In this document: positions 2,428 to 45,593 of the stretch, piece after piece
Layout: each line of letters begins with the position of its first letter
How positions within the stretch are numbered: position 1 is the stretch's first letter
Assembly (NCBI GenBank): GCA_021163775.1
Contig: JAGGTI010000030.1
Span: forward strand, 1 to 63,606
Origin: Candidatus Zixiibacteriota bacterium
GTDB lineage: Bacteria; Zixibacteria; MSB-5A5; GN15; FEB-12
Length of the DNA: 63,606 nucleotides
Reading direction: 5' to 3'
The notes under the pieces: model-generated
What the model saw: the letters and a program-made list of their open reading frames with translations, nothing else
Told to the model about the DNA's origin: nothing
Database searches by the model: none
Made by a program: the position numbers and the translations under genes

Positions 2428-3303
2428 TCAGAAGCAATCGTCCAACCCCAACGATGAACCCGTGATAAACAGGTAATCCTGCAAGATTGCTATATCGCCC
2501 ATCGTGATGTCATCACAAGTTGGATCAGCACCGCCCGACAGGTTGATATCCGCCTCAGCTAAACAGGCGATGATACCATCGCAGTAACCCGAAATAAACT
2601 TGGCGTCGATCATGACTGTCAAATCGCCGATAGTCGGCTCGTCGCCGTTCAAGCCGTCGGCATCCCCGACCCGCTGGACACAGCATGTTTGAGAGGGTGT
2701 GTCGTAGACCACTTTTGGCCCGGTCCACATCGGCTTGTGTTCACTATAGTCCCCCAGTGCGCCAGCCCCACGACCACTGCTGAGAACAAGGATTGTTCCG
2801 GCACTATAAGTCATGGTATCAAAGACAATCGTGTCATTGGCGCTCCATTCGTCAACGGTGAAGTAGTAGCTAACCAAAAGATTTCGCTCAGCCTGCGGAG
2901 CCAGGTATGGCCAGGTCATACTCAAACCTACGAATGGAAACCTCCTATAGTGGTTGGTAGTGTCCAGCGTGTTCTTGTCATAGCAGAAGGTAGCGAAATT
3001 GAAGGCGCTACTCGCCAGTGGTGACAGCACGGCGCTATCCATTCGCAGGTGGGGGTTATCCCAAGCATATCCCCCAGCCATAGCGATAAGGTTATTGCCG
3101 TCGTTGAAGAGATACAGGTCCAATTGGACGTTAAACAGCCCAGACCCGGCATCGGGCGCGACCGAAATGACCATATCCATAGTATCCGCAGCAAGGTTGT
3201 CGCCAGCATCCTGCACAAATTCGGCCTGTGCACCGGCATGCGGCACAACCAGAATCGACAGTAGCAGTAATAACATAGTCTTATTCATATCTGATTTCCT
3301 CAT
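2428..3303 (-). CDS. Secreted protein: cohesin-like beta-sandwich plus C-terminal dockerin-like domain
   Basis: Signal peptide (MNKTMLLLLLSILVVPHAGA; start may be 3288). C-terminus has a duplicated Ca-loop/helix: CCVQRVGDADG...TIGDLTVMID and EADINLSG...TMGDIAILQDYLF. The cohesin assignment is by pattern only. Confidence 0.7.
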   Translation of the reverse strand: MRKSDMNKTMLLLLLSILVVPHAGAQAEFVQDAGDNLAADTMDMVISVAPDAGSGLFNVQLDLYLFNDGNNLIAMAGGYAWDNPHLRMDSAVLSPLASSAFNFATFCYDKNTLDTTNHYRRFPFVGLSMTWPYLAPQAERNLLVSYYFTVDEWSANDTIVFDTMTYSAGTILVLSSGRGAGALGDYSEHKPMWTGPKVVYDTPSQTCCVQRVGDADGLNGDEPTIGDLTVMIDAKFISGYCDGIIACLAEADINLSGGADPTCDDITMGDIAILQDYLFITGSSLGLDDCF

Positions 3304-3347
3304 ATCATATTAGGTCTTTATCTCTCATGACAATTACTGGCACATGA

Positions 3348-6218
3348 TTAGGGTACACAGGGGCAGTCTACCAAAGGTGTTGTCGGATTGATAAACAAAT
3401 GTTCAATCAGTAGGGTGACGTCACCTATGCTTATTTTTTCTCCGGCCGAATTGAGAAGACCGTTCGCATTCGCTTCCTCGACGCACGCTGGAAGGGGTGT
3501 CTGGTATATGAACAGATGATCAATTAACACAGCAACATCTCCAATGGTCGGTGTGTCGCCGCCGAGACCGTTGGCATTACCCCGCTTGCCTACACAGCAA
3601 GCTATGCCGTGCTCGTAATAGACGTCCTGCATTCCTGATGGCCGCCCGCTGTTGGGCGCATTTAGCCAGGCTTCTTGAAACTCGTTTATGTCGTCCGCCA
3701 GATATCCGTCATCGGCATTCTTGGTTAACAGTACATTGAGAATCGTAGCAATATCAAACTGCACAGAATCCAGCACGTCATCGGTGTTTGTCCACGGCCA
3801 GTTGTCGGCAGTCTGGTAGCAGGCGCTGTAGTTGTCGTCCTGCGAGTCATAAAGATCCCAAAGAATCCCGGCCACTCTGCACTCCGTGCTGTCAAGATGA
3901 TTTGCAGAACCGTATGTTGTATCCGGCCATCCCGTTCTATGTAGGCCCCACTCACCATTTTCTACATTATACCACCAACCATCGGCAAAATCAAAGTATC
4001 GGTTTTGTAACTCATTGTTCCCTCGCATGAAGCAGGAGACAAAATGGGCAAATCCTTCGTGAGCCGCAAGAACAGGCGAAACAGTCTGGTTCCAGCGATG
4101 ATCAGCGCCACTCACGGTCGTATCGAGAATATCGAACTCATACTCCAGATGGTGACCGTACTCATGGAGGATTATATCCCGATCATACGTGTCAGGATAG
4201 GAGCTGTCCGGTAGATCGCGTATGTCGAGCACTATTGCGCTACTACTGGGACTATAACCAGTGCCATATTGGGCAGCATGTTCTACATTCACCTGATTGG
4301 GGGTTGGCAAGCCCAAATCAGTCCAGAACTTGTACCCGTCGAGCACTACATCGGAGGAATAAAAAGGCCCACTGTTTAATGGATTCTTGGGGACCACCAG
4401 CGTGGTGTCGTAAACACCACCGGGCAGGTCTTCGCCAACATTCGATTCCCAATACGATTCCTGGTTCACCACCTTAGATTCGGCCGCGGCGTTCTCAGAG
4501 TGAATTCGGAAGAAAATATCACGAAGGCCTGTTACGTCCGGTGGATCGTCAGAATTGTCCACCGATGGGAAGCTGAAATACCCGTAGGCATCTGTTGTGG
4601 TCGTGGCAACCAACTCGGGGTTGTCCGGATCGTCGGATTCATAGTCTAACATTTCGATTACCGCGTTGCGAATCGGTAGAGTGGAATCGGCCTCGGGATT
4701 CATGTCCCAGTAACGAGCGTACCCGCTGAACTCGATTGTGGGACTCACAATAGTAAAGCAGTGTGGTCCGTACCAATAGGGACGGTGCTTCATATCGATA
4801 ATATCAATCCATTCCCACTTTCCACTTAGTCCAAAAAAAGAAGAGTCGAGACAGATGGTACGTCCGGCATACATCTCGTCGATCGGCCCAATGGTTATGG
4901 TGTAAGATATCTCATCAAAGTACTCCGGCATTTGCGTATCGACCCCACCCCACCCGGAGAAGCCAACAGTATCAGAGCCGGAACCTGTGGCGCTACCATA
5001 ATTGATGAAAAACCAGTCAAACATATGGGGCGGACCGCCAAAGTCGCCCTCCCATCCAAGACTGATAGTGTCCCCTGCAATCGAACCCCACTCGGCCCCG
5101 TCAGGCGAGTAAATACGGAAACCGTTGACGATATGTCGCATATGGAAGAAGTGGTTATATATCCGCAAATAGAACGTAATTGGCTGACCGGTAGATATCT
5201 CGCCGGGGGATAATTCCCCGTCAACATGGTGCAACGTTATACCCTCAGGCCAGGCTTGGGGAGAACTATCTTCACCTCGAGTGTCGCCACCCGACTCCTT
5301 CATCTTTCTATCCGACTGTGGCTCGGTCTCTCCGCTGTCATCCGGGTTGATCGGTTGCTGGTGCGGCTGTTGGTTCCGCCCAGGATTTCGGGAGGCCGTG
5401 TATCGAAAGAAGTACACCTTCCGCTCGACAAGCGCCAATCCGGTTTCCTTGTTGATCCGGGCACGAAAGTAGCCGGGTAGATTGGTCGCGGTCATTTCGG
5501 TTATCAATCCCCGCACCGCGCTCTCGACATCGGGGTCTCTCAAGTCAATTACCACCTCGAATGGTTTCTTTGCCGGAACGGTTTCAAGAAAGCTCGTCGT
5601 CGCACCCATGTAATCCTCATAGGTGGTCGTCAAATCCGAAGACTCCAGGCCGGTATGCTCATCATATTGGATACAATCCTGTCCGTCTATTCTGATAAAC
5701 TGCTCTTTAGTAGCCACTACCGGCTTCTGTCCCGGCGATCTCCGGATGACTCGCTGTGGCCTGGCCGGCTCAGGAACGGACGTAGGAACATAATCGAGCA
5801 CTGCTATCGAGTCACCAGTGGTAATGAACGTCTTGGTAAGCCCTTGTTGCCCTCGTCCCCGGCACCCCAGCCAGATCTTGATCGCCGAAGTATCGTTGGG
5901 CGGAACTATTACCGATAAAGTGGTCGAATACTCTCCGGTCTCGGCCAGCGAGACCCAGAACTCTGCAGGACCGTCGTAGACCAGATCCTTCCATGCACCA
6001 ATCTGCACCAGGACCGAGTCGCACTCGTCTACTTGTGGTTTCAACTTGAAAGTAAGTACCAGTTCTATCGGCCCACTCTTGTCGGGCAATGAGTTAGGCT
6101 CCAAAGTATAGTCAAAGTACTGCGGTGTTGTGGGCATGGTTGCAACCAACGGCTGTGCCATCAGCGTGACCAGCCCGGCGGCCACAGCGACCGCAATGAC
6201 ACGGGGATGAATTCTCAT
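3348..6218 (-). CDS. Large secreted multidomain zinc metalloprotease-like protein with C-terminal dockerin-like domain
   Basis: GGAGG RBS and signal peptide. ILHEYGHH (HExxH) plus downstream HEGFAHF third-ligand motif (gluzincin-like). C-terminus CCVGKRGNANG...TIGDVAVLIDHLF / ANANG...SIGDVTLLIEHLF. Confidence 0.75.
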   Translation of the reverse strand: MRIHPRVIAVAVAAGLVTLMAQPLVATMPTTPQYFDYTLEPNSLPDKSGPIELVLTFKLKPQVDECDSVLVQIGAWKDLVYDGPAEFWVSLAETGEYSTTLSVIVPPNDTSAIKIWLGCRGRGQQGLTKTFITTGDSIAVLDYVPTSVPEPARPQRVIRRSPGQKPVVATKEQFIRIDGQDCIQYDEHTGLESSDLTTTYEDYMGATTSFLETVPAKKPFEVVIDLRDPDVESAVRGLITEMTATNLPGYFRARINKETGLALVERKVYFFRYTASRNPGRNQQPHQQPINPDDSGETEPQSDRKMKESGGDTRGEDSSPQAWPEGITLHHVDGELSPGEISTGQPITFYLRIYNHFFHMRHIVNGFRIYSPDGAEWGSIAGDTISLGWEGDFGGPPHMFDWFFINYGSATGSGSDTVGFSGWGGVDTQMPEYFDEISYTITIGPIDEMYAGRTICLDSSFFGLSGKWEWIDIIDMKHRPYWYGPHCFTIVSPTIEFSGYARYWDMNPEADSTLPIRNAVIEMLDYESDDPDNPELVATTTTDAYGYFSFPSVDNSDDPPDVTGLRDIFFRIHSENAAAESKVVNQESYWESNVGEDLPGGVYDTTLVVPKNPLNSGPFYSSDVVLDGYKFWTDLGLPTPNQVNVEHAAQYGTGYSPSSSAIVLDIRDLPDSSYPDTYDRDIILHEYGHHLEYEFDILDTTVSGADHRWNQTVSPVLAAHEGFAHFVSCFMRGNNELQNRYFDFADGWWYNVENGEWGLHRTGWPDTTYGSANHLDSTECRVAGILWDLYDSQDDNYSACYQTADNWPWTNTDDVLDSVQFDIATILNVLLTKNADDGYLADDINEFQEAWLNAPNSGRPSGMQDVYYEHGIACCVGKRGNANGLGGDTPTIGDVAVLIDHLFIYQTPLPACVEEANANGLLNSAGEKISIGDVTLLIEHLFINPTTPLVDCPCVP

Positions 6219-6447
6219 ATACTACCCTCCTATTGTATTATACAATTGACGTTCAGGGCCGCCGAAATGTCAAACGGCGTCCACGTATACTAGTTCTCTT
6301 GCAATCGTTACCGAGCACACCTCCCTTTGCACAGAATCACGAAGTCATAAACTGTCTGACCGTAAGAAAGATATGCAGTTACACGCTCGGCGTCAAGCAA
6401 AAACGCATTGTTCCGAGTGCGAAAGGTAGAGCTACTGCAATGCGCGT

Positions 6448-7680
6448 TTAGTTTTGATCGGACGTCGTATCCGCCGGCGGCATCGTATCAAACAGACTAT
6501 CGACCGGAATTCGTTCAAAGAACAACGTATCTTCGATACCGTCATAGTAAAATAACCCCTCTTCGGTCTCGAACAGATCAATCGGTTGGATCAGTACGGT
6601 CATATTCTCACCTTCACGCTGAATCGCCAGCGTTGCCCCGCCCTGATCGTACCCTTCAAGGATATACTCGATCATCTGTTTATGCGTACGCAGACGCTTG
6701 CCATCAACCGAGCGAATCTGATCACCCTCTCGTAAACCGCAAGCATAGGCTAAACGATACATATCAATCTGACTCACCGTCAGGCGATTGTTGTCACCAA
6801 CTGTAATGGAGAAACCAAACTCGCCTTTCAATGGTAAACCTTCGATATACACTCGCCGACGGTTCTCAATTTGGCCCGATGGTCGTGATGGTGGACGGGT
6901 AATCGCCACCAGTCGTGAATTGTACGGCTCGTCGATGATCCACTGCGCCAAAGGACGTTCAGCGGACAGAATCCATTCCGGCAGGAGATACTGTTCGAAT
7001 ATCTGTCGACCGGGTGTTTTGTCTTTCCAGAACGCCGACTGATAAGCGACCAGGGTCGAATCCATACCGATAATATGCTGAGCAGTTACCAGCGCCAATA
7101 GCATGGCCAGGTTGTCACGACGGTAAACTCCCAAACGCATAAGCGGATGACTTGCCATAGCTTTGTAAAATGGATCATCGGCTCGCTCGGCCTGAGAGAG
7201 CATCCTATGAGCTAATTGATAAATCAGATTGAGTTGCATCACCGCGCCTTCGGGAGCCGCCATCGCAAGCACTCCCTGACGTTTGCCGCCCATTGGAATC
7301 ACCAGCGGGTCGGAACCACCAAACGACGGGTAATATCTCAAGGCATAGATGTCAAATCGATCCTCTACCCAGTCAAGACCAGACAGTTTAGCTAACAGAA
7401 AAAGACTACTGTCGCCTTTAACCTGCCAGAATTCTGTAAGGGCGGAGTCGTGGTGCTTTAACCAGCGCATATCGCCCCGTACCGAATTTGTTTGATAGAA
7501 ATCGGGGTAGAGACTGGCCTGAAATGCAACCGCCCGATCGTTAATTCTGACATCGGGAACCGGTAGATTGTACTCGACTACAGCATCACTCTGGCGGGTG
7601 CTGTCTTCATAAAAGGACTGGCCCCAGACTGATCCAGTACCGATCAGGAATAACGCAAAGATAGTAAATAATCGTTTCAT
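6448..7680 (-). CDS. Secreted PDZ domain-containing protein
   Basis: Likely start MKRLFTIFALFLIG (signal peptide); C-terminal PDZ signature FGFSI...AYACGLREGDQIRSVDG. The ORF-track extension to 7926 reads through repeats. Confidence 0.75.
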   Translation of the reverse strand: MKRLFTIFALFLIGTGSVWGQSFYEDSTRQSDAVVEYNLPVPDVRINDRAVAFQASLYPDFYQTNSVRGDMRWLKHHDSALTEFWQVKGDSSLFLLAKLSGLDWVEDRFDIYALRYYPSFGGSDPLVIPMGGKRQGVLAMAAPEGAVMQLNLIYQLAHRMLSQAERADDPFYKAMASHPLMRLGVYRRDNLAMLLALVTAQHIIGMDSTLVAYQSAFWKDKTPGRQIFEQYLLPEWILSAERPLAQWIIDEPYNSRLVAITRPPSRPSGQIENRRRVYIEGLPLKGEFGFSITVGDNNRLTVSQIDMYRLAYACGLREGDQIRSVDGKRLRTHKQMIEYILEGYDQGGATLAIQREGENMTVLIQPIDLFETEEGLFYYDGIEDTLFFERIPVDSLFDTMPPADTTSDQN

Positions 7681-7770
7681 CAGGGTGGAATAAACGAGAG
7701 TTATGGTGTCGTAGCAAGGCAAAAACGAGATGGTTGTTGGCCAAGCACAAACCAAGTCACCATGAGCTAC

Positions 7771-7926
7771 GCCTGCCCTAAGCTTGCCGAAGGGTCGAAG
7801 GGTTCTTTTACCCGTTATACGCCAGACTTCGACAGGCTTAGTATAACGTAACAGCAGATGTGGACATCTGCCGGGCACTCTTAGTAGACATCTGTCGGAC
7901 ACTCTCAATAGACATCTACCGGGCAC
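7771..7926. repeat. REP-like mosaic including 3 x 24-bp tandem units
   Basis: Reverse-strand CCCTTCGGCAAGCTTAGGGCAGGC (7771-7794); CTTCGACAGGCTTAG near 7827; GCAGATG-TGGA-CATCTGC hairpin; GACATCT... units starting at 7863, 7887 and 7911. Confidence 0.85.
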
Positions 7927-7957
7927 AAGATAATCTGGTACTCCTGCGCTTGCGTTC

Positions 7958-8866
7958 CTAAGCTACGGGATCGGCCGGCGTCACAGCCTCAACCACCGAC
8001 TGCGGCTCAACCAATCCAAAATAGAACTGTACATACATAGCGTTGAAAAACGTTCCAGTGTAACCACCGAGGACAATCGCTACCGGCAGGCCAATAAACA
8101 ACGCCAGTATCAGAATGCCTATCAGGCTACCAGTCATAGCATAAATCAGCAAGTTTATCGGCAGATACAGAATCAATGCCGCCATGAAAATTACGATCGC
8201 AAACGCAATTCCCAGTCCGATCAAGACCAGAGTCATCAGAAAACAGTTCCCGAGGTTGTTCTTGACTAAACCCCATCCTTCGGCAACAGCATCGCCGATT
8301 TGGTTATCCCGCGCCACCATAGCCACTTCGGCTAGTCCAAAAGTGTGATAGGCAAAGAAAAAGAATATCAATCCAGCTGGTATGGTAAGTAGCAGGCTCA
8401 GCGGGGTTAACGCAATGGCGAGGATTACTATCATCACCACTGCCGCGATCCCGACAAATATCTCTATCAGCGTGATGCCGAAAAACCGCCAAAAGAAATC
8501 GGTGCCGCGCGAAAATGACGAGGCAAACGTGTATTGTCCCCCTCGAGTGATACGGTTGACACCATCGATGATAGCCGGTTGGGCAATAAGATAGCAGATG
8601 AAAAACAACAGTGCGAGTGCCGCCAACCAGACCACTAACCCGCCCAGCATGGCTAACTTGGGGGGTATCAGGTCGTACGACCAGTCCATGTAGTCAAACA
8701 GGTCATGCATGATAGACATGTCGGCCGGTTCTCGGTCGATCTTGTCCAGCCAGTCAAAATTGAAACCTTCTACGCCACCGGCAAAAAGTCCGAATATCCA
8801 GAGAGTTTTGTGTCGCCAGACGACCTTAAACGAATTTTGAATTAAGCTACCGAAATCCACGTTCAT
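7958..8866 (-). CDS. Integral membrane protein of unknown function
   Basis: 302 aa with about 6 TM segments; begins MNVDFGSLIQNSFKVVWRHKTLWIFG; GGAG RBS. Confidence 0.8.
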   Translation of the reverse strand: MNVDFGSLIQNSFKVVWRHKTLWIFGLFAGGVEGFNFDWLDKIDREPADMSIMHDLFDYMDWSYDLIPPKLAMLGGLVVWLAALALLFFICYLIAQPAIIDGVNRITRGGQYTFASSFSRGTDFFWRFFGITLIEIFVGIAAVVMIVILAIALTPLSLLLTIPAGLIFFFFAYHTFGLAEVAMVARDNQIGDAVAEGWGLVKNNLGNCFLMTLVLIGLGIAFAIVIFMAALILYLPINLLIYAMTGSLIGILILALFIGLPVAIVLGGYTGTFFNAMYVQFYFGLVEPQSVVEAVTPADPVA

Positions 8867-8945
8867 ATCGGTCTCCGTATTAGAGTATCACCTAATATGC
8901 CGGATTGATCACAACCACAGCAACAAACAAATCGATCGATAAATC

Positions 8946-9020
8946 CAGCAGATATGGACATCTGCCGGGCACTCTTAGTAGACATCTGTCGGACACGTTT
9001 AATAGACATCTGTCGGGCAC
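8946..9020. repeat. Second copy of the hairpin plus 24-bp tandem repeat
   Basis: 8946-8996 matches 7852-7902 at 50 of 51 bp; units start at 8957, 8981 and 9005. Confidence 0.9.
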
Positions 9021-9113
9021 GTTACGCGATTACTCCGGGTCGGGGCACTTCCGTGTGCCCGTAACCGATGTTAGAGCTTGCGGCATCCATCCGCACATAT
9101 TACTTGTTACGTT

Positions 9114-9476
9114 ATGAATCTATTCAAAGTTTGCTTCATAATATCAACCGCACTACTTTTGACCGCCTGCGGCGGCGACCAACCGGATCCAGAGACAGCA
9201 AAAACAGCTCCAGACGGGTTTTCCGACAGCTTAGTAATCGAACTGGCAGGAGCCGATTCCGTTACGGTTCTTGATTTAGTTCGCGAATCTCACCAGGTGG
9301 CCTACCGCACCACACTGAGCGGAGCATTTGTGACCGCGATTGACTCGGTTGAAAACGGTGGCGGTTATTTCTGGGTTTACACGGTCAATGACATTCAGGT
9401 ATCGTTGGCTTGCAATGACTGTTTTACATCCGATGACGACCGCGTGAAATGGCATTTCCGAAAGTTTGGAGAATAA
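9114..9476 (+). CDS. Lipoprotein with DUF4430 (transcobalamin-like C-terminal) domain
   Basis: Lipobox LLLTA-C; GAFVTAIDSVEN...FWVYTVND...DRVKWHF resembles DUF4430. Confidence 0.7.
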   Translation: MNLFKVCFIISTALLLTACGGDQPDPETAKTAPDGFSDSLVIELAGADSVTVLDLVRESHQVAYRTTLSGAFVTAIDSVENGGGYFWVYTVNDIQVSLACNDCFTSDDDRVKWHFRKFGE

Positions 9477-9493
9477 CAAACCGGTTGATCTAC

Positions 9494-9573
9494 CGTAGGT
9501 CTGGTTGCTTGCAACCTGACAGATGGTTTCGACATTGATGATATATTGTGGGCGGCAGATGTTCCATCTGCCG
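9494..9573. repeat. REP-like palindromes
   Basis: CGTAGGTCTGGTTGCTTGCAACCTGAC (GTAG-headed; recurs near 21296, 57467, 59449) and CGGCAGATG-TTC-CATCTGCCG. Confidence 0.75.
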
Positions 9574-9579
9574 ATCCGA

Positions 9580-9885
9580 TCAGACTTTCACGGTCGGGAT
9601 TTTGTCCGTCGCCTTCTTGACCATCTTTTTCATAGCCATTGAATTGTCGAAATTCTTTTTGAGATAGTCATCGATCGCTTTGTCCAACAGTGCTTCAATT
9701 TTAGTTTCCTGGAAATGCGCCATCACTTTCAGCTTGCCCAGGTGCTCCTGTTTGATCCACAAGTTCTTGCGTTTCCACTCGTTGCCAGCCCGATCGATTC
9801 GTGCATCAGAAACTATGATCGAATTTTCCGACTGATCAACCGATTCATTTGTTTTCTGCTCTTTTTTGCTCCCAAAGATACCCAC
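9580..9885 (-). CDS. Small protein with ribbon-helix-helix-like segment
   Basis: Probable GTG start at 9885 after GAGG RBS; RKNLWIKQEHLGKLKVMAHFQETKIEALLDKAIDDYL fits a beta-alpha-alpha pattern. Confidence 0.55.
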   Translation of the reverse strand: MGIFGSKKEQKTNESVDQSENSIIVSDARIDRAGNEWKRKNLWIKQEHLGKLKVMAHFQETKIEALLDKAIDDYLKKNFDNSMAMKKMVKKATDKIPTVKV

Positions 9886-10019
9886 GGGAATTTCCTCGCT
9901 TGAGTTGATCTCTTTACCGCTATTATCGACATTCTCAGGCCCAGTCGTTAAGGTGTGATAAAATATTGACAAACTGGCTCATCGCTTGTTTGTTTACAAT
10001 ACAGTGAAAGGAGGCCTAT

Positions 10020-10112
10020 ATGGCTAAGGGAAGAGATGCCCGGAAAAAAGAGACCAAGAAGCCAAAGAAGAAAAAGAAGAAGGTCGAAAAACCAGTAGAA
10101 AAGCCGAAATAG
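10020..10112 (+). CDS. 30-aa Lys-rich small protein (not in ORF track)
   Basis: AAAGGAGG RBS directly upstream; MAKGRDARKKETKKPKKKKKKVEKPVEKPK*. Confidence 0.65.
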   Translation: MAKGRDARKKETKKPKKKKKKVEKPVEKPK

Positions 10113-10184
10113 CGATTTGGCCCATCTACGGCAAATCGAATTTCCACTGGCAATCCGGCCCACCCGGATTATATTCGGGCTATC

Positions 10185-10979: not shown

Positions 10980-10982
10980 ACG

Positions 10983-36307: not shown

Positions 36308-36340
36308 AAAAAAAACCGGAGAGACCAAAGTCTCTCCGGT
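36308..36340 (-). terminator. Terminator of the dsrABDNLC operon (may also serve the kinase gene)
   Basis: ACCGGAGAGAC-CAAA-GTCTCTCCGGT preceded on + by a long A-run. Confidence 0.85.
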
Positions 36341-36360
36341 ATGCTTACAGCTACAAGATA

Positions 36361-36678: not shown

Positions 36679-36739
36679 AATTACTCCTCATTGTCTAATA
36701 TTGTTTATCGTGCTTTATTGTTATCTCTATCATTGCTCA

Positions 36740-38425
36740 CTAGTGCATTTCAATATAGCCACACGGACAGTTCTCAGCACATTTCTTACATCCGTTACAG
36801 TATTCCAGTTTGAACTTATACGGTTCGCCTTTGATCAAAGGCTTTATTACAGCATTATCCTGACAGTAACTCCAGCAATTAGTACAGTCAAAACACATAC
36901 CGCAACTCATGCAACGTTTGGCTTCCTGTATCGCCACATCCCTCGCCAGGGTAGCAACGATCTCAGCAGTCATACTCTTGAGCCGCTCATCGGGCACCAT
37001 CTCGGTAGCCTTGACCCGTTCCATACCTTCGTACCATTGCAACATTATTTTGTCCGCGGTTATTTTAGGCATACCGGATTTATCATCCGGCATCGCCTCA
37101 CCAGTGATCATCTCATGGATAGCAAAAGCCGCAACCCGACCGTGGGAGATAGCATCAATAGCCAGCGCAAGATTGATATTATCCCCACCAGCATAGACAG
37201 CATCGTCTTTGGTTTTGTACTTGTCATCGACCTTGATCCAGTCCCTACCCTCAATCAGGGATTCAAACCCGGTGAAATCCGGCTCCTGACTAATAGCTGC
37301 GATCAGAGTTGTAAACTTGAGGTCGTAGGTATCGCCTTCAATCGGCACCGGGCGACGGCGTCCGGAATCATCCGGTTCACCCAGTTCCATCCGCTGGCAT
37401 TTCATGCCGGTTGCCTTGCCGCTGTCATCGGTGTAGATTTCAATCGGCGCGGCAAGCAAATCGATCCGGACCCCTTCTTCTTCAGCTCCAACGATCTCTT
37501 CGTCAATCGCCGGCATCTCGGTCCGAGTACGACGGTACAGAATAGTCGCGTTGGCGCCCAACCGGCGCGCGATGCGAGCGGCATCAATGGCGGTATCACC
37601 ACCGCCGACCACCACCACTTGATCACCAACTTCGACAGTTTCGCCAGCGTTGACCTTGTGCAGGAAACCAGTACCGGTAAATACATTCGGTGCGTTTTCG
37701 CCTTCGACCCGAAGCAGGCGTCCCTGGTGCGCTCCCAGGCTGACAAAGATCACTTTGTATTCCTTGCGAAGGTCATCCATAGAAACATCTTTACCTACTG
37801 CGGTGTTGAGTTTCAATTCAACGCCCATATCACAAACCCGCTGAATCTCGGCATCGAGAATATCGGGTGGGAGACGGTAATCAGGAATACCGTAACGGAG
37901 CATACCGCCCGGTTTTTCAAACGCCTCAAAAACTGTAACCTGGTATCCACGACGCGCCAGATGATAAGCGCAAGTAATACCTGCAGGACCAGAACCAACT
38001 ACAGCGACTTTTTCCGCACGTACTTCATCAGTTAGTTTCTTCGGCACCAGTTTATGCTCCAGACCATAGTCACCGAGAAACCGTTCGATTTTGTTGATTC
38101 CTACAGCGCCGTCTTTTTCGTTCCGGTTACAACCGGTTTCGCATGGATGCGGACAGACTCGGCCACAGGTTGATGGAAACGGCGTGGTCTCCAGAAAAGT
38201 GTAGAATGCTTCTTCCATTGCCTGGTCGAGAGGTTTTTCGTGTTTCTCGGCCAGGGCAATAGTCATAAGTGCCAGCCTGATGTGATTGCCATTGGGACAA
38301 TTGTCACCGCACGGCGGCTTTTTCGGAACATGTTTTGGTCGAAGCGATGATGTTTCAACTGACGAGCCACCGCTACTCCTGAGACTCTTGAGCCCTTTTT
38401 TCTTTTTCTTAACTACTTTTACCAT
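36740..38425 (-). CDS. dsrL: DsrL NAD(P)H:acceptor oxidoreductase, DsrL-2 type
   Basis: GltD-like (CGRVCPHPCE, GSGPAG, GGMLRYGIP) with C-terminal ferredoxins (RCMSCGMCFDC, CNGCKKCAENCPCG); YRR NADP motif; inside the dsr operon. Confidence 0.9.
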   Translation of the reverse strand: MVKVVKKKKKGLKSLRSSGGSSVETSSLRPKHVPKKPPCGDNCPNGNHIRLALMTIALAEKHEKPLDQAMEEAFYTFLETTPFPSTCGRVCPHPCETGCNRNEKDGAVGINKIERFLGDYGLEHKLVPKKLTDEVRAEKVAVVGSGPAGITCAYHLARRGYQVTVFEAFEKPGGMLRYGIPDYRLPPDILDAEIQRVCDMGVELKLNTAVGKDVSMDDLRKEYKVIFVSLGAHQGRLLRVEGENAPNVFTGTGFLHKVNAGETVEVGDQVVVVGGGDTAIDAARIARRLGANATILYRRTRTEMPAIDEEIVGAEEEGVRIDLLAAPIEIYTDDSGKATGMKCQRMELGEPDDSGRRRPVPIEGDTYDLKFTTLIAAISQEPDFTGFESLIEGRDWIKVDDKYKTKDDAVYAGGDNINLALAIDAISHGRVAAFAIHEMITGEAMPDDKSGMPKITADKIMLQWYEGMERVKATEMVPDERLKSMTAEIVATLARDVAIQEAKRCMSCGMCFDCTNCWSYCQDNAVIKPLIKGEPYKFKLEYCNGCKKCAENCPCGYIEMH

Positions 38426-38559
38426 GACATCGCCTTCACATTGATGAACACTGCCGGAGATCAGTTGCGTGCCGGGTTTGTTTAAGCAACCCGGAATTAA
38501 CACTCATTCGGAAGGTTCGATTGTTTTTTGCTTTTTCCCAACAGTTTCCTTTGTTGCCA

Positions 38560-40062
38560 TCAGCAGTCCGACGCCAGCACGCCAGTTTCGACTCCGGACC
38601 GTCTGAAAACCTCCATTATATTTGTTTTCTCCAGTTGGCTTTGACAATCAGCCTCGGGCTGGCTGGTTCGCATCTGAAAGTCATTCGCCTGGAAAACAAA
38701 CGCGTCCGCCCATTCAGGGAGACCATCGACGTGCAAATGTGTATAGCAAGCCAGACAGTTCTTGTAAATCAGACCGTCACGTTTGTTCCCCAGCCCTACT
38801 CCGGTTCGGACCTGCATACAACCGTCAGTGTTGACCGGTTCGATAGATGGTCCGGTATAATGAAATTCATGTCCCCGAATAACTGTACCAATTTCAAAAT
38901 ATGGATTAGCGCGATCGACCACGATCTCAGTGTAGCCGTGACCAACCGGTTTCGAGTGCATCTGAAGATCAAAGTTGAAAATCCCCGCCAGGTCATAGCG
39001 CTGGTTATTGCAGGTAAGAGAACGACACAAGAAGATCAACCCACCACACTCGGCATAGATCGGTAGACCAGACTTGGCCGCCTTCCGAACCGACTGTAAC
39101 ATCGACAGATTATGTGACAATTTCTCGGCCTGAGTTTCAGGAAAACCTCCGCCAATATACAAACTGTCGATTTCGGGCAGTGATTCGTCTTCAAGCGAAG
39201 ATACCGGCACAAGTTCGGCCCCCCTGCTCTGAAGGGCGGCGAGATTCTCCGGATAGTAAAACGTAAACACCGAATCGCAAAAATAACCGATTCGAACCCT
39301 GCTCTTGATCGGAGTGATTTTGGGGCGTTTAGTCACAGCCAGAGATTCGGTGTCGCCGGCAATTTCAATCATGCGATCAATATCAAGATAATCTTCAGCA
39401 ATCGATATCAACCGCTCCTGCAACCCAGTATCCTCACCAAATTCCGATGGCGTAACCAGTCCGAGATGTCGTCCCGGAATCAGCGTAGAACCATCATCAA
39501 GTTTTGGAATAGCACCTAACACTGGCAAACCGCACGTTTGTTCAATCGCCTCGGTAATCACTCGTCTATGCCGGTTGCCTGCCACCCGGTTAAGAATTAC
39601 CCCGGCCAGCTTTAGCTCCGGCTCCAACACCTGACAACCTTTAACCAGCGCCGCTACGGTGCGCGTAACCTTGGTGCAGTTCACTACCAGCACCACCGGC
39701 GCTTTGAGCAGGCGAGCCAGACTCGCCGTACTGTGAGTACCGGAGGCGTCTCGACCATCAAGCAGACCACGGTTACCTTCTATAAGAGCCAGGTCAGATC
39801 CAGTCGTAGCCTCAGCAAACGATGCCGCAACCGTGTCCGGGGTAACCATATAAGTATCAAGGTTGCGACACTCTGTCTGCGCCGCCCACGCCAGCCAGGC
39901 CGCATCAATATAGTCCGGTCCTTTCTTGAACACGGAGAGGGACAGACCTCGACGCCGCAAAGCTGTTAGAAAACTGAGGCTGGTTATCGTCTTGCCTGCA
40001 TCTCCAGACAACCCGGCAATAACCAGCCTTGGACACTTCGTTACCATACAACCAACCGTCAT
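38560..40062 (-). CDS. dsrN: DsrN siroheme amidase (CbiA-like)
   Basis: FKKGPDYID, IEGNRGL, FYYPENL, IYAECGG, RGHEFHY; downstream of dsrD. Confidence 0.93.
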   Translation of the reverse strand: MTVGCMVTKCPRLVIAGLSGDAGKTITSLSFLTALRRRGLSLSVFKKGPDYIDAAWLAWAAQTECRNLDTYMVTPDTVAASFAEATTGSDLALIEGNRGLLDGRDASGTHSTASLARLLKAPVVLVVNCTKVTRTVAALVKGCQVLEPELKLAGVILNRVAGNRHRRVITEAIEQTCGLPVLGAIPKLDDGSTLIPGRHLGLVTPSEFGEDTGLQERLISIAEDYLDIDRMIEIAGDTESLAVTKRPKITPIKSRVRIGYFCDSVFTFYYPENLAALQSRGAELVPVSSLEDESLPEIDSLYIGGGFPETQAEKLSHNLSMLQSVRKAAKSGLPIYAECGGLIFLCRSLTCNNQRYDLAGIFNFDLQMHSKPVGHGYTEIVVDRANPYFEIGTVIRGHEFHYTGPSIEPVNTDGCMQVRTGVGLGNKRDGLIYKNCLACYTHLHVDGLPEWADAFVFQANDFQMRTSQPEADCQSQLEKTNIMEVFRRSGVETGVLASDC

Positions 40063-40088
40063 ACGATCAAAACCATGAAAACCAAGTC

Positions 40089-40334
40089 CTAATCGTTGGC
40101 GGCTCCTTCTTTGTGCGGTAGCTCAATGAAACTGCCACCAAAGTAGGTGTAAACACATCTCCCGGTGTCGATCAAATTCTTGATTGCTAACTTGCAAGTT
40201 TTCTTGTCGAACTCATCACCAAGAAGTTGTTTCATCGCCTTGGTCAAATCCATCGGCTTGAGCTTTTTGATGCCCTGGGCCTCTGAGATCATTTTATACA
40301 TCATCTCAGTAATTTCTTCGACCGTCTTAGCCAT
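40089..40334 (-). CDS. dsrD: DsrD
   Basis: 81-aa winged-helix protein, KKLKPMDL...CKLAIKNLIDTGRCVYTYFGGSF; directly after dsrB. Confidence 0.88.
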   Translation of the reverse strand: MAKTVEEITEMMYKMISEAQGIKKLKPMDLTKAMKQLLGDEFDKKTCKLAIKNLIDTGRCVYTYFGGSFIELPHKEGAAND

Positions 40335-40346
40335 ATCAAGACCTCC

Positions 40347-41429
40347 TTAGAAAGTAATATGCGTCGAGCGCTTATAGGTCAAACCGGCGTGCTTGAAATC
40401 GTCGACATGTTCCTTCTGGAACTCAATACCGGACATCTTGAAGAACTTCGGCCAACCTATACGCTCGATCCACTCGCCCATTCTCTCATATTTATTGGCG
40501 TTAGCCGCCCAAAGTTCAACGATGTTCTTAATTGCACTCGTCACTTCTGGCCAGCGTGGTGGATTGTTCGGCAGGAATGGGATTGCCAGCTTGGAAAACA
40601 TAGGTTCATGGCGCGCATTGGACACCTTGCCGCCTAACCAGATCGAAATACCATCGTTCAAAGGATCGGCGATAGGCATTGCGGGACAGACCGTAAAACA
40701 GTTGGCACAGAACATACACTGCTCTTCAATAATCTCAACCGACTCAAAACCGTCAACTGTCGCCGGACGAACCGCCGCAGTCGGACATGAAGCACTGACA
40801 TTTGGAATTTCGCACATCTTCTTGACTTTGTCATGCATGATTTTCGGTGGGCGCCGGTGAATACCAAGAATAGCGATATCCGAGCAGTGCACCGCACCGC
40901 ACATATTCAGGCAACAGGCCAGGGCGATACGCAGTTTGCCCGGCAATATCATATTCTCAAAGTACTCAATCAACTCGTCCATTGTAGCCTTGACGACACC
41001 GGACGCATCGGTGGCCGCCGAGTGACAGTGAATCCAGCCCTGAGTGTGAACGATAGCGGAAATTGAGTTGCCAATACCACCAATCGGGTGGCCCATTTCC
41101 TTGAGGTCAGCGATCAGTGGCTCAATGTTCTCCTGCTTGTCCATCAGAAACTCGACATTGTGGCGACTGGTGAATCTCAGATAACCGTCACAATACTTGT
41201 CCGCCAGGTCACAATACATGCGAATCTTCTGGATACTGGTCAGACGACCGGAGGCCGCCCTTACGGTGAACAGTTTAGCACCACTGTGGGAAACATGAAC
41301 CATGACACCCGGCTTGAGAACTTCGTGGTACTTCCACTTACCGTAGTTTTCTTTGATTATGGGCGGCAGAAACTGGTCATGATGTGGCGGCCCGTAATCT
41401 GTCCGTCTTTCGTGTACTGCATCAGCCAT
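40347..41429 (-). CDS. dsrB: Dissimilatory sulfite reductase beta subunit
   Basis: [54 protein letters not shown]. Confidence 0.99.
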
Positions 41430-41468
41430 TTTATATACCTCTAATTAGTATCAATTCCAGGTTTAGGG

Positions 41469-42671
41469 TTAGTCTTCGGAGCCATCATCCTCTTCGAAGT
41501 ATTCTTCGTAGAACACGTACGGGTTCTCACGAGGATGAGCGACCATCTCCGGTATCGGTTCCACCTCAATAGCTTCGAGGAAGTTGCCCAGACCGACGCG
41601 CTGAATGAATTCACCCACACGCTCACGGTTCTTACCTTCTTCACACCAGACATCCCAGATGCGTTCCGTCAGATCCTTGATTTCCTGATATGGCGGTTCC
41701 ATCTTGATGAATGGGATAATCACTGAAGACAACAGAGCACCTTCAACGATCGGAGCCTTGGCACCCAACAGAATCGTAGCACCCCGGTCTTTACCAGGAG
41801 CCAGAGCTTTAGGCATAACATTGATACAGTGCATACAATGACGACAGTAGCTGTTCTCAATCGTCAGTTCTTTACCGTTCCAGTCCATACACTTGGCCGG
41901 ACAGTTGTCAACCACGTCAGCCTTGATATCCATCCCGCCATCGGCATATTCCTTGATCGCATCTTTATCCATCTGGATATCGTCACGCCACATACCAATG
42001 ATAGACATATCAGAACGGGCAATCGAGGCTACACAGTCATTCGGACAGCCGGAAAATTTGAATTTGAACTTATATGGAAACGCCGGGCGATGTAACTCAT
42101 CCTGGTAAGCCATAGTGAAGTCATAGCAGGCGCCCATAGTGTCGTAGCAGGCCCATTCGCAACGCGCCTGACCACAGCAACAACTGGGGGTACGCACATC
42201 GGAACCAGATCCACCAATATCAAAATTGATCTTCTGCAGTTCGTCGAAAGTCGGCTCCAGTTCGTCGGTGGTTGTCCCCAGCAAAATGATATCGCCTGTG
42301 GAACCGTGCATGTTGGTCAGTCCGGAACCATGCTTTTCCCAGATGTCGCAGATTTTCCGCAACGCTTCGGTGGTATAGAACCAGCCAGCTGGTTGGTTGA
42401 TGCGCATGGTGTGAAAGTGCGAAATGTTCGGGTACTCATCCGGCAGGTCATTGTAACGACCAATTACACCACCGCCATAGCCCATCACTCCGACGATACC
42501 ACCATGTTTCCAATGGCCTATCTTTTCTCTGTATGACCGTTCCAGCAAACCCAGTAGGTCTTTACCCATCGGGTTATCCGCCGCAGCCATTTTGATTTCC
42601 GTGACAAAACTCGGCCACTTCCCCTTCTCAAGTTCGTCAAGCATTGGGGTTTTAGGATATGCGTCTGCCAT
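41469..42671 (-). CDS. dsrA: Dissimilatory sulfite reductase alpha subunit
   Basis: [50 protein letters not shown]. Confidence 0.99.
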
Positions 42672-42798
42672 CTTTGCTCCTCAACTCGAATTGTATCTTA
42701 AGTTATTGTAATTTCTTTCTTTATCCGACATCTAACCTGCACACCCGGTAGGCCGCTTAGCCATTCAGCCTGCGAACGTCTGCCGAGCAGGTCGGACT

Positions 42799-42890
42799 TC
42801 GTTACATTTTTCACTAACGCATACTCTATTTATTGATTTTTCCCCCATATGTCAAGGCCAATCAAAGCTAAAATGTGAAAAAATTCATTA
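42799..42890 (-). promoter_or_regulatory. dsrA promoter region with two Rex-like boxes
   Basis: TCGTTAC-ATTT-TTCACTA (42799-42816) and ATGTGAA-AAAA-TTCATTA (42873-42890) flank a minus-strand TTGACA (42850-42855); the -10 match is weak. Confidence 0.6.
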
Positions 42891-43098
42891 ACTCCCCGCT
42901 TTTATAGGGAAAGTAAACAAATATGACCCCACATCAACAATCCCCCTAACCAGCTATTACACAACATATTAACGGCTTCCATGAAATGCGTAAACATAAA
43001 AGTCAGGATTCTTGTTGAGGTTAAAAGATATTGAAGTTGCCCATAATCTTATTAATTTAATTTTAACAGCATTTCATACGCCAATAATTGAGTTGTAG

Positions 43099-43170
43099 AA
43101 AAAGCCCCCCTATTAGGGGGGCTTTTGATTTTCCTGCCTGTTACTGGAAGGGCACTACATACCCTTGTAC
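43099..43170. repeat. Direct-repeat copy of the qmoB 3' end plus terminator
   Basis: 65/72 identical to 46031-46102; encodes ...YKGM* on the minus strand and contains the AAAAGCCCCCC/GGGGGGCTTTT hairpin. Confidence 0.92.
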
Positions 43171-43253
43171 AAATTCGAACTTGCGATGCCTGCTATAAGC
43201 AGGATTCCCGACCGACCCAAGGATCAAGAGGCCGGTCGAGATGCGAGAAACCG

Positions 43254-45593
43254 CTATTTCAACAGAATCATCTTCTGCGACTCGGTGTAGTCACCAGCCT
43301 GGATCCGGTACAGATATATACCGCTGGCGAACCCGGCACCATCCCAAGTCACTGAATGCCACCCAGCCTCCATCCGCTCGGCCACAAGAGTCTCTACCAG
43401 TTGGCCGGCAATGTTGTAAATCGACAGTTCCACCTGACAAGCGTTCGGCAAACCGAAAGCTATTTCGGTGGAGGGGTTGAACGGGTTGGGGTAGTTCTGA
43501 AGCAGTTCAAAATCCTCCGGCAGTTGCGACCCAAACAGGAGTTGGTTGACATCGTAGGTAACCCACCATTTGGATACTACCGTGCCGCCTATCGCAACGA
43601 CGTGGTGCTCCAGATCGGTTGACGCTTCCGCCATGTAGAATTCTCCCGGTGAGTCGTATTCGAAGCTTACGGTTGACGTTCTCGTCTCCCAGTGGCCATA
43701 ATTACCAGGGCCGGGAAGGGAGGGTTCATCAGGGGCGCCAGCGGTCTCTTTTGCCACCAAGTTGCTCCCACCTGAACGGGTGTAAGTAATGTTGGCAAAC
43801 GCAGTTCTCTCCTCGGTCGGAGCCTGTTCAAACGACGGATCCGCAACCGTACTCAGAATCACCCATTTGTAGCCCAATGTATCAAAACTCTCTACTGCCA
43901 CACCCTCTATCGGAATGACTTCATACATATAGTGTGGCCCGGAGACTTCAATCTTAACCCTGAAATCGTCCAGCGTGAAATTGTGTTGAGTATAATAAGT
44001 CTGGGTGATATTGCAGTCGCCAGCTTGGACGCAGGGACAGTAGTACTCACCCATCAGGAATTCAATCGGGTCAGGCTGAATCCAAGTAAGGCCCGCACCT
44101 TCAGACAAGTTGACTCCACCAGTGGTATCAACTACCTTGGCGGAAAACTGCGGTTCACCATCCCACGGCGCAACGCAGGTAAAATAAGTGAATCGATTAT
44201 CATATTCGGTTGGCACAGTGAAATTTTCAGACTTGTCCATTCTGAAACTAACCATCGGCTGTGGATCGGAAAAAATCTCCATAAAGCCCGGATCGAAATA
44301 TCTCCGCAAAGACAGTTCTTCCGGATCTACGGGGCCTCCCCCAAAGCTGGACATTCCAAAGTCAATCGCTTCCCATGTTATCCACTTGGCTTCCAAATCC
44401 ATCCCCAGATTGAAATTGGCAATGATTGAGTTCTGATCCAGACCGGCCGGGAAATTATTGGTCAAACTTACCTGAACTTCAGCTTGATCGTCGTAGAGCG
44501 AAAAGTAACCATCCAACAGCTCGGTTGAGTAACTCGCCGCATACGCATCAATGGCAATAGCGCCACCATTGAAGGTGTGATCAAGCGGGTCTAGAAATTC
44601 ACACCAACCGGCACCATCACCCACGTGCATCTCGGGTGGAGTTACGAGGCTGGATATCGTCAGCGGACATTCATCCCCCTGCCAATTTCCCTTAACAGTA
44701 AAGCCAACTCTTATTTCCTCGGTCGGATCATTGAACTGATGGGCATTATTATACTCCACTAACGCGACGCGAATCATGCCCGGGCCAACATTGGATAAGA
44801 CATAATTCAGGTAGAAATGATCACCGACAACCTCGAAGTCACCATAGGCATAACTCAGCTTGGCGGTGTCGTACTCAATATATACGTCCACAAACCCCAA
44901 CCTGAAATTAGACTGTAGCAGAATAGGCACAAAGATATGCTCCCCTAATATACCCTCGTACTCTATGAGTCCATCGGTATCCACCACCCAGAATTCGCCG
45001 TTGTAGGACTCGTTGGTCACCGAGCCGTGATCAATACGATCAAGCGGGGTGTTCACGACGTAGTTGCCCGCCGTAGTCGAGACATGTGTCAACTCCTGCG
45101 CATACAGGATGTTCACGTCATTCACCTGATCGGATGGCTGACACAATAGAGTAAAATCAAACTCCGCCAGAGCAACTACCCCGCCCATTACTGCGAAAGG
45201 GTAGGCGGTAATGATGTCGTAGACGATAGTATCTTCGTTTTCCGGCTCGTCATCCCACACGCGTGCCGGTTGGGCCGTTACTCCCTCCGTACCCCATGCG
45301 TCGGTTGGCCGGGCCTCAATGAAATCCATCTCGCTGGGATCAAACACCAGCCGAATATAGGTGCCGGTCACAACTCCTGTGACACCGGGGTCAAATTCGA
45401 ATTCAAAGTTAAGAGTCGCCAACTCGTTCGCCGGCGTATCGGTACTACCGGCTATGAATATGGTTGATTCGGTCAGGTTGAAATTGACCGCGTCTGGTAT
45501 GCTTTCCACACCGGCTAGCGCCACCCCTCCAGAAAGACCTATGAATGCTAATGTAAGAACAGACAGCAGTAAGAACATTTTGCAGTTAGACAT
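43254..45593 (-). CDS. Secreted acidic beta-rich protein with cohesin-like domains and a FlgD-Ig/T9SS-type C-terminal domain
   Basis: AAGGAG RBS and signal peptide; IFVPILLQSNFRLGFVDVYIEYDTAKLSY is cohesin-like; C-terminus LLQNYPNPFNPSTEI...IYNIAGQLV...SGIYLYRI...KMILLK. Confidence 0.8.
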   Translation of the reverse strand: MSNCKMFLLLSVLTLAFIGLSGGVALAGVESIPDAVNFNLTESTIFIAGSTDTPANELATLNFEFEFDPGVTGVVTGTYIRLVFDPSEMDFIEARPTDAWGTEGVTAQPARVWDDEPENEDTIVYDIITAYPFAVMGGVVALAEFDFTLLCQPSDQVNDVNILYAQELTHVSTTAGNYVVNTPLDRIDHGSVTNESYNGEFWVVDTDGLIEYEGILGEHIFVPILLQSNFRLGFVDVYIEYDTAKLSYAYGDFEVVGDHFYLNYVLSNVGPGMIRVALVEYNNAHQFNDPTEEIRVGFTVKGNWQGDECPLTISSLVTPPEMHVGDGAGWCEFLDPLDHTFNGGAIAIDAYAASYSTELLDGYFSLYDDQAEVQVSLTNNFPAGLDQNSIIANFNLGMDLEAKWITWEAIDFGMSSFGGGPVDPEELSLRRYFDPGFMEIFSDPQPMVSFRMDKSENFTVPTEYDNRFTYFTCVAPWDGEPQFSAKVVDTTGGVNLSEGAGLTWIQPDPIEFLMGEYYCPCVQAGDCNITQTYYTQHNFTLDDFRVKIEVSGPHYMYEVIPIEGVAVESFDTLGYKWVILSTVADPSFEQAPTEERTAFANITYTRSGGSNLVAKETAGAPDEPSLPGPGNYGHWETRTSTVSFEYDSPGEFYMAEASTDLEHHVVAIGGTVVSKWWVTYDVNQLLFGSQLPEDFELLQNYPNPFNPSTEIAFGLPNACQVELSIYNIAGQLVETLVAERMEAGWHSVTWDGAGFASGIYLYRIQAGDYTESQKMILLK

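Follow-up and report, generated by a model that had tools for sequence, protein, structure and literature searches.

A putative cohesin-dockerin kit with cysteine-clamped dockerin-like tails in a Zixibacteria genome

The window studied here is a stretch of 63,606 nucleotides from a Candidatus Zixiibacteriota bacterium, a name also carried by its relatives in the databases. It is the complete contig C4 (GenBank JAGGTI010000030.1) of a 2.37-Mb assembly in 130 contigs that is 77% complete (GCA_021163775.1). Its minus strand encodes three open reading frames (ORFs), P1 (2428-3303), P2 (3348-6218), and P3 (43254-45593), which are present as described in a first-pass annotation that saw in them a cellulosome-like proteolytic complex held together by cohesins and dockerins. 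P1 follows downstream of P2 on that strand after a gap of 44 nt, and both proteins end in a similar tail with conserved cysteines, hereafter the Cys-clamped tail, which is the main subject of this work. The hydrophobic leaders of the three proteins were judged by eye from the sequence, without a signal-peptide predictor. In what follows, C-numbers without a genome label are contigs of the window's own assembly (G000) and G-numbers are the Zixibacteria genomes that were compared. The features of the three genes, including the sorting domain for type IX secretion (T9SS) in P3, are the following.

2428..3303, minus strand: P1, secreted, 291 aa: leader, predicted cohesin-fold module, and predicted Cys-clamped dockerin (ORF)
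2692..3237, minus strand: predicted cohesin-fold N-module of P1, residues 23-204 (AlphaFold2 and Foldseek)
2431..2700, minus strand: predicted C-terminal Cys-clamped dockerin of P1, residues 202-291 (AlphaFold2, Foldseek, VIA-align, and hhalign)
3348..6218, minus strand: P2, a 956-aa secreted multidomain protein (ORF; homologues of parts of it in 58/61 family genomes)
4704..5303, minus strand: repeated module of P2, ~170 aa, residues 306-505 (many matches to residues ~320-495)
3609..4760, minus strand: putative zinc metalloprotease region of P2, residues 487-870 (7-member family alignment)
4152..4166, minus strand: HEYGH (HExxH) motif of P2, residues 685-689 (located in the sequence)
3351..3608, minus strand: predicted C-terminal Cys-clamped dockerin of P2, residues 871-956 (E = 1.5e-13, 43% identity to the P1 tail)
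43254..45593, minus strand: P3, a 779-aa secreted T9SS cargo without a catalytic family (ORF, Pfam, and NCBIfam)
44688..44954, minus strand: probable cohesin-like domain of P3, residues 214-302 (hhalign)
43266..43493, minus strand: T9SS type A C-terminal sorting domain of P3, residues 701-776 (Pfam PF18962, TIGR04183)

The Cys-clamped tail is about 87 residues long and, as the first-pass annotation had noticed, is made of two tandem segments, each with a calcium-type loop followed by a helix. It recurs widely in the genome: a search with the P1 tail returned 30 ORFs, with E-values from 3e-57 to 1.5e-13, among which the tail of P2 is the most divergent. The tail ends at most 5 residues before the stop in 28 of these ORFs and 16 residues before it in another one; in the remaining ORF, on contig C15, it follows the leader. 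This single non-C-terminal case (G000:C15:33042-34367) has a leader, then the Cys-clamped dockerin, and then two Cys-rich repeats of ~140 aa without a Pfam family. The consensus of the tail is CCxGRVGDANGxGGDEPTIGDxSxLIDxxFI...C..EADINQSGGxxPxxDDITIGDISILIDYLFITGxSLGLPDC[LF], with conserved cysteines at its start (CC), in its middle, and in its last residues. In a set of 242 tails from the databases, Cys occupies four positions (both residues of the CC pair, one in the middle, and one near the end) in 99-100% of the sequences, and two further positions vary together, both being Cys in 194 tails, both lacking it in 47, and being split in 1. This pattern would correspond to two fixed disulfides and an optional one; in the predicted pairing, the two covarying positions would bond to each other, and the CC pair to the middle and near-terminal Cys. 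Given this conservation and covariation, there are good grounds for the earlier suggestion that the extra cysteines (CC...C...C) mark a variant stabilised by disulfides. When a library of 1.84 billion proteins was searched with the profile of all 30 tails, 2,604 cluster representatives matched at E <= 0.001, 752 of them at E <= 1e-10 and 295 at E <= 1e-30. Matches to the tail were found in 70 of 151 Zixibacteria genomes, with 55 out of 55 in the window's family and 14 out of 95 elsewhere, and most genomes of the family have from 20 to at least 35 matches each.

Judging from profile comparisons and from a predicted structure, we take the tails of P1 and P2 to be divergent modules of the dockerin family. 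The AlphaFold2 model of the tail (30-row alignment) has a predicted local distance difference test (pLDDT) of 89.8 and two main helices, at residues 24-37 and 67-79 of the model. When it was compared with the PDB by Foldseek, ranks 1 to 14 and 16 were all dockerins, with E-values between 0.08 and 0.95, 18-26% identity, and target-normalised template modelling (TM) scores between 0.34 and 0.77. The 16 entries listed by VIA-align were also all dockerins (Z 5.5-8.9, root-mean-square deviation 1.9-2.9 Å, 57-72 residues) and the alignment often spans the entire solved dockerin, e.g., 63/63 and 62/62 residues. VIA-align warns that a Z below 8 can reflect a common arrangement, and the identification is for this reason not rested on fold alone. 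The genome has its own canonical dockerins, with 10 matches to Pfam Dockerin_1 (PF00404) at E <= 1, of which 4 are above the cut-off, and none of the 10 falls on a Cys-clamped tail. Comparing the 30-tail alignment with four dockerins of the genome (three above the Pfam cut-off and one just below) by hhalign gave a probability of 96.8% and P = 3.1e-10 over 62 columns across both repeats. Besides, the tails of all 6 other proteases of the P2 family align with the P2 tail, behind the same catalytic region, and among the 17 tails aligned with that of P2 there are 2 that match Pfam Dockerin_1 at E <= 0.1, the better one with 4.7e-6. The check by Pfam, AlphaFold, and Foldseek proposed with the first-pass annotation had a two-sided outcome: Pfam misses the tail, and fold and profile-profile comparison indicate a dockerin. 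We also observed a 406-aa protein (G000:C61:10984-12201) whose leader is immediately followed by a short dockerin-like repeat and whose C-terminus carries a second one that ends in PDCR; it looks intermediate between canonical and Cys-clamped dockerins.

The N-terminal part of P1 was described as one beta-sandwich in the layout of an adaptor scaffoldin, and the structural predictions are in line with this at the level of the fold. The AlphaFold2 model of the N-module (18-row alignment; pLDDT 83.8, predicted TM score 0.82) is a beta-sandwich placed ahead of the tail and had 61 Foldseek matches in the PDB at E <= 0.001. The top one was the cohesin 5lxv (7.6e-8), further ones include the cohesins 4ums, 6kgf, 3ul4, 1g1k, 5nrm, and 2zf9, and a single non-cohesin was found among the matches listed. 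At the level of sequence, Pfam Cohesin (PF00963) matches neither P1 nor P3, nor anything else on the window's contig at E <= 1, an iterated within-genome cohesin hidden Markov model picked up neither the P1 N-module nor P3, and the comparison of the N-module with a cohesin profile built from the genome gave P = 0.008. A look-up of P1 in the ESM Atlas found cohesin-bearing clusters among its neighbours, all below the bar of the tool, which are leads only. With a predicted cohesin fold and a dockerin in the same protein, P1 has the layout of an adaptor. The combination of a cohesin and a Cys-clamped tail is also found in 2 other ORFs of the genome and in 5 of the 120 database relatives listed. 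P1 has five near-full-length orthologues, 72-42% identical. A search with the single sequence found P1-type modules in 43/61 family genomes. In the window's genome, the module heads four other proteins, one of which has 808 aa and ends in a Pfam Dockerin_1 domain, and three of which end in T9SS sorting domains, on contigs C14 (299 aa), C40 (1439 aa), and C6 (1529 aa). Small cohesin proteins of the family genomes (~285 aa) were considered as possible P1 orthologues and rejected: they lack the Cys-clamped tail and end in a T9SS-type motif.

P2 consists of a hydrophobic leader, a repeated family module, a catalytic region with the HExxH motif, and the C-terminal Cys-clamped dockerin. The repeated module has at least 15 scored matches in several family genomes, and a similarity to the last part of the P1 module was found in its C-terminal third (hhalign P = 1.3e-4 over 53 columns). 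Residues 306-505 are possibly a further cohesin-related fold. The HExxH motif noticed earlier in P2 is conserved in the alignment of seven family members, which has invariant E, H, H, and E columns: the motif, HEYGH in P2, is intact in 6 of the 7 and reads EEFGH in the remaining one. Downstream, an invariant Glu lies in an EGFAHF-like motif, and it may be the third zinc ligand of a putative gluzincin-type site. No match above threshold was found for P2 in Pfam or NCBIfam, nor in Pfam for two of its relatives, and its catalytic region matched no PDB sequence, either with the single sequence or with the family profile. It is thus a putative metalloprotease that belongs to no curated family. A pair of directly adjacent P2-like and P1-like genes in the same order and on the same strand was found in two genomes of different genera (G160, contig C301, and G153, contig C210), where the P1-like partners have 271 and 267 residues from stop to stop and combine the P1-type module with the Cys-clamped tail. 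This recurrence is the best reason to think that P1 and P2 act together, and the view that they form an enzyme-plus-adaptor pair is well supported. The complex prediction of the P1 N-module with the P2 tail and two calcium ions scored 0.15 against a mark of 0.32, which counts neither way. Elsewhere in the genome, a 135-aa frame (G000:C80:5870-6232) shares 82% identity with residues 1-122 of P2 and is either a paralogue or part of one.

The proteins that carry the tail include many peptidases. A Pfam peptidase domain was found in 9 of the 28 tail ORFs outside the window (three C1, two C10, two S8, one M1, and one M14), and FG-GAP repeats in 4, one of which also has a C1 peptidase. Other tail ORFs carry Sortilin-Vps10, DUF7901, TSP_3, or MopE motifs, and 10 out of 28 have no family. 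Together with P2, there are ten putative peptidases among the 30, and the word "proteolytic" is therefore fair for about a third of the set rather than for all of it. No glycoside hydrolase was found on the 28 ORFs at E <= 0.001. A cellulosome in the strict sense, i.e., dockerin-tagged glycoside hydrolases on a scaffoldin, is hence not what these genes encode (0/28).

Candidate sockets for the tail are spread over the genome. At E <= 1 there are 12 matches to Pfam Cohesin, 6 of them above the cut-off. A local cohesin profile, iterated on the genome until convergence, collected 13 domains from 11 ORFs, and two of these ORFs also end in Cys-clamped tails. A Pfam Cohesin domain and a Por_Secre_tail occur in one frame on C1 (457 aa) and C32 (1679 aa), with weaker cases on C17, C56, and C90. 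These cohesin proteins with T9SS sorting tails and the three T9SS-tailed proteins headed by the P1-type module, all outside the window, are better candidates than P3 for the role of anchor. There are 33 matches to Por_Secre_tail at E <= 0.01 in the genome, which also encodes SprA (537.8 bits) and PorU (691.8 bits), both above the cut-offs. The census of T9SS genes suggested with the first-pass annotation was thus positive for SprA, PorU, and T9SS-tailed cohesin proteins. The GspD cut-off was reached neither by the two secretin genes found here nor by the 3-4 secretin-like frames of each of four relatives. Across the phylum, Pfam Cohesin matches 141 of 151 Zixibacteria genomes and 52 of 55 in the window's family. 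The small cohesin proteins of other family genomes, of which four sequences were examined (288-310 residues from stop to stop), end in a motif of the type NYPNPFNP...KMVLLK, like the sorting domain of P3. In eight family genomes (e.g., L049:1237-5746, in G012; L050-L056), a small cohesin protein with a T9SS-type tail is found in a repeated gene order, between a PDZ-bearing HtrA-like protein of ~500 aa on one side and, on the other, a ~590-aa protein that, by its sequence, resembles a tandem Ser/Thr kinase followed by a membrane helix at the C-terminus. Finally, three small genes on a contig of 2.1 kb (G000:C120:1-2135) encode Pfam cohesins, a canonical dockerin, linkers rich in Pro and Thr, and a membrane helix at the C-terminus. 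This contig differs in style from the remainder of the genome and may be mis-binned, for which reason it was excluded from the counts of cohesin-fold genes.

P3 had been proposed as the surface scaffold of this complex. Its sorting domain, recognised earlier as a T9SS-type C-terminal domain, is well above the cut-offs of both TIGR04183 (41.6 bits against 23, E = 9.3e-11) and Pfam Por_Secre_tail (PF18962; 35.5 bits against 27, E = 1.2e-8), and no catalytic family was found in the protein, in agreement with the initial description. Of the several cohesin-like beta-domains that it may contain, one is backed by profile comparison, at moderate strength: using a 5-row family alignment, residues 214-302 match the small Zixibacteria proteins with a cohesin and a sorting domain (P = 1e-4, probability 57%) and also the cohesin profile built from the genome (P = 4.7e-4). 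P-values of 0.02-0.1 were obtained for two further stretches, and the P1-module profile gave no match (P = 0.14-0.25). ESM Atlas neighbours of P3 include cohesin clusters, all below the bar of the tool and to be taken as a lead only. The gene lies 37 kb from P1 and P2, with dsrA on one side and an HdrA-like gene on the other. Its orthologue in G014, a genome of the same genus, lies between the same two genes and is ~40% identical, against 82% and 90% for the neighbours, which makes P3 a fast-evolving protein. No paralogue of it was found in the genome, and one full-length homologue was found in the database (51% identity). P3, which is largely limited to its genus, may offer one more socket and is a weak candidate for a scaffold.

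Taken together, sequence comparison and structural models point to a real and partly unannotated cohesin-dockerin kit, to which P3 is weakly linked. We consider it rather likely that P1 and P2 are part of a protein-docking system specific to this Zixibacteria lineage, with T9SS-sorted cohesin proteins as anchors and P1 as an adaptor. Besides the folds, the conserved gene pair, and the cargo, this reading draws on the distribution of the tails and of Pfam Cohesin in the family (55/55 and 52/55 genomes), on the modular behaviour of the tail (12 of the 242 tails are N-terminal or internal), and on gene clustering: 10 of the 30 tail genes are found at most 5 kb from another cohesin-fold gene (random mean 1.6, maximum 7 in 2000 draws). 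In such a system, the tailed proteins would be exported by the Sec pathway, after which the dockerin would fold with calcium and be locked in the periplasm by two or three disulfides. The folded dockerin would then plug into cohesin-fold modules, among which those of the T9SS-sorted proteins would serve as anchors at the cell surface, and P1 would add one more socket, possibly for P2. The outcome would be a set of surface-held peptidases and adhesin-like proteins that digest protein near the cell, and this large unannotated kit probably gathers protein-cutting enzymes on the cell surface. The earlier idea of a surface scaffold that collects dockerin-tagged peptidases is thus sustained by folds and gene content, and not supported as far as P3 is concerned.

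Several observations weigh against this docking system. The tail is missed by curated families: Pfam Dockerin_1 has no match on P1, on P2, or on the isolated tails, even at E <= 10, and neither has NCBIfam. None of the Foldseek matches of the tail model in the PDB is at E <= 0.001, and its profile retrieved no dockerin from the PDB sequences, the single match being a chance one to ribosomal protein S8 (E = 0.06), so that the relationship is a remote one. Canonical EF-hand-like dockerin loops have 12 residues. The Cys-clamped tail departs from this spacing, with a loop 1 that is ~2 residues longer and a loop 2 that is ~7 residues longer than in the genome's Pfam-type dockerins (from the hhalign gaps), and calcium binding is for this reason only assumed. 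The P1-type module has a limited family range by profile (37/55 family genomes and 5/95 elsewhere in the phylum), one family genome (G059) has 26 tails and 5 P1-type modules without any Pfam Cohesin match, and the four canonical dockerins above the Pfam cut-off could be the true partners of the Pfam-type cohesins. The test of gene clustering is inflated by the clustering of tail genes with each other. Finally, none of the 30 tail-bearing ORFs has a T9SS sorting domain, P1 and P2 included, which gives them no evident route across the outer membrane.

Other explanations were weighed as well. The tail could be mainly an export or anchoring signal, read by a secretion or attachment machine and without a part in cohesin docking. 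In its favour, 230 of the 242 tails end at most 10 residues from the C-terminus, and their last residues are conserved: most of them have an invariant Cys that is one or two positions away from the last residue. The number of tails in the genome, ~30, is near that of the T9SS sorting-domain matches (33), and the absence of ORFs with both is as expected of alternative sorting signals. However, no dedicated machine was identified, 12 of the 242 copies are N-terminal or internal, some tails are on proteins that also carry cohesins, tail genes cluster with cohesin-fold genes, and the tail is homologous to dockerins in sequence profile and in fold; we therefore regard an export signal as unlikely. 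The same counts fit a variant in which the dockerin lets its bearers hitch-hike on type IX secretion: once folded in the periplasm and locked there by disulfides, tagged peptidases would plug into the cohesins of T9SS-tailed proteins, and the preformed complexes would cross the outer membrane together. This would explain why no protein has both tags, why their copy numbers are similar, and why disulfides of the periplasmic type are needed, and we nonetheless hold it to be very unlikely.

It is also unlikely, in our view, that the tail is a non-cellulosomal calcium module that binds an envelope glycan, an exopolysaccharide, or a mineral surface, or merely stabilises the enzyme, the cohesin-fold modules then serving other purposes. 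Peer and colleagues are said to have found, in 2009, cohesin- and dockerin-like modules outside cellulosome-forming organisms; the genome has ~30 tails for roughly 18 cohesin-fold domains, and the lengthened loops and extra disulfides resemble no characterised cohesin-binding dockerin. Yet, such a module would leave aside the co-occurrence and clustering of dockerin and cohesin-fold genes, the existence of adaptor-like fusions, and the conservation of the P2-P1 pair. As for the original proposal of P3 as the dedicated scaffold that collects P1 and P2, we deem it highly improbable. The sorting tail, the lack of a catalytic family, the one domain with a moderate profile match to cohesins, and the structural leads of the ESM Atlas would suit a scaffold. 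On the other hand, the gene is distant from its presumed partners and lies among dsr and hdr-like genes, the remaining three quarters of the protein have no cohesin likeness in profile comparison, and its family is found in 5/61 family genomes while tails are in 55/55, a narrow range that argues against a general-scaffold role. G160 and G153 have the P2-P1 pair and yet no homologue of P3 was found there with P3 as a query. The docking system with anchors encoded outside the window remains the reading that we favour.

The rest of the window informs on the host. The genes dsrA (41469-42671) and dsrB (40347-41429) are both above their equivalog cut-offs. The public sequencing runs that contain DNA of the window are all labelled hydrothermal vent metagenome, which may be its source, and no RNA run was listed among them. 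If the docking is true, it would suggest how Zixibacteria carrying dsrAB obtain peptides from particulate protein. At the left edge, the following feature is cut by the end of the contig.

3..323, minus strand: N-terminal 107 aa of a secreted protein, a probable M14 carboxypeptidase (via its orthologue)

This fragment was taken for a secreted M14 peptidase in the first-pass annotation. It has no family match itself in Pfam or NCBIfam, nor a match in the PDB or to the genome's own M14 protein, and the assignment is probable through its orthologue in the same-genus genome G098 (54% identity, a 958-aa frame), which matches Pfam Peptidase_M14 with E = 1.4e-15. Directly downstream of P1 and on the opposite strand (1908-2318, plus strand), there is a 136-aa ORF of extreme Arg/Lys/Thr content without a Pfam family. 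Upstream of P2 and on its strand (6448-8866, minus strand), the window encodes two proteins: one of 492 aa, in which a single PDZ domain but no protease domain is recognisable, and a multi-pass membrane protein of 302 aa that matches DUF7544 weakly.

The closest structural parallels of these proteins are in the clostridial cellulosomes. The best matches are entries from C. thermocellum, A. cellulolyticus, R. flavefaciens, and C. acetobutylicum (4fl4, 3ul4, 5nrk, 5m2s, 6kgf, and 5lxv). Shared with these systems are the predicted dockerin fold of two loop-helix repeats, with Z-scores up to 8.9 across whole chains, the predicted cohesin fold of P1, with Foldseek E-values down to 7.6e-8, the many dockerin-tagged enzymes for few cohesins, and the presence of proteins in adaptor layout that combine both modules. 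The differences are also clear. The host is a member of the Zixibacteria, of Gram-negative type, and the candidate anchors have T9SS sorting domains, whereas clostridial anchors use S-layer homology (SLH) domains or sortase. The cargo is made of peptidases and of FG-GAP or PKD proteins, without a glycoside hydrolase among the 28 scanned. The modules themselves, with lengthened dockerin loops and 4-6 conserved Cys, are below the thresholds of Pfam Dockerin_1 and Cohesin. If the docking is true, the cohesin-dockerin principle would reach beyond polysaccharide-degrading Firmicutes into a Gram-negative candidate phylum, beyond glycosidases to peptidases, and, for anchoring, beyond SLH domains or sortase to type IX secretion. 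A tail module missed by curated libraries would also receive a name, and so would a second cohesin-fold module that Pfam does not recognise. For the engineering of protein assemblies, a dockerin locked by disulfides would be a useful part.

Surface display of proteases by T9SS has an example in the gingipains of Porphyromonas gingivalis, type A cargo whose display needs the C-terminal sorting domain and PorU. As in that system, P3 and the cohesin proteins carry the T9SS domain, and PorU and SprA are encoded in the genome. Unlike gingipains, the Pfam peptidases among the tail-bearing ORFs carry the dockerin rather than the T9SS domain, so that their attachment would be indirect, through a cohesin protein.

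No paper in the literature that was searched combines "Zixibacteria" with "dockerin" or "cohesin". The concept is already in print for another phylum, since a cellulosome-like complex was inferred in silico in Candidatus Stygibacter (Cloacimonadota) by Williams et al. 2021 (PMC8542988). The passages of that paper devoted to the complex describe enzymes that have a signal peptide and a C-terminal dockerin, among them S8/S53 and C25 peptidases and also glycosidases, and a cohesin scaffoldin of 3,755 aa whose conserved C-terminal domain serves to attach it to the cell surface, for which a T9SS review is cited. They identify the domains with InterProScan and propose the degradation of both polypeptides and polysaccharides. 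Judging by these passages, the two systems have in common the dockerin-tagged peptidases and a cohesin protein with a C-terminal domain for surface attachment. In contrast with the one scaffoldin described there, the Zixibacteria would have several candidate anchors, some of them small proteins with one or two cohesins, a further type of cohesin-fold module among the sockets that Pfam does not recognise, and, in a different phylum, an unannotated Cys-clamped dockerin present in ~30 copies per genome.

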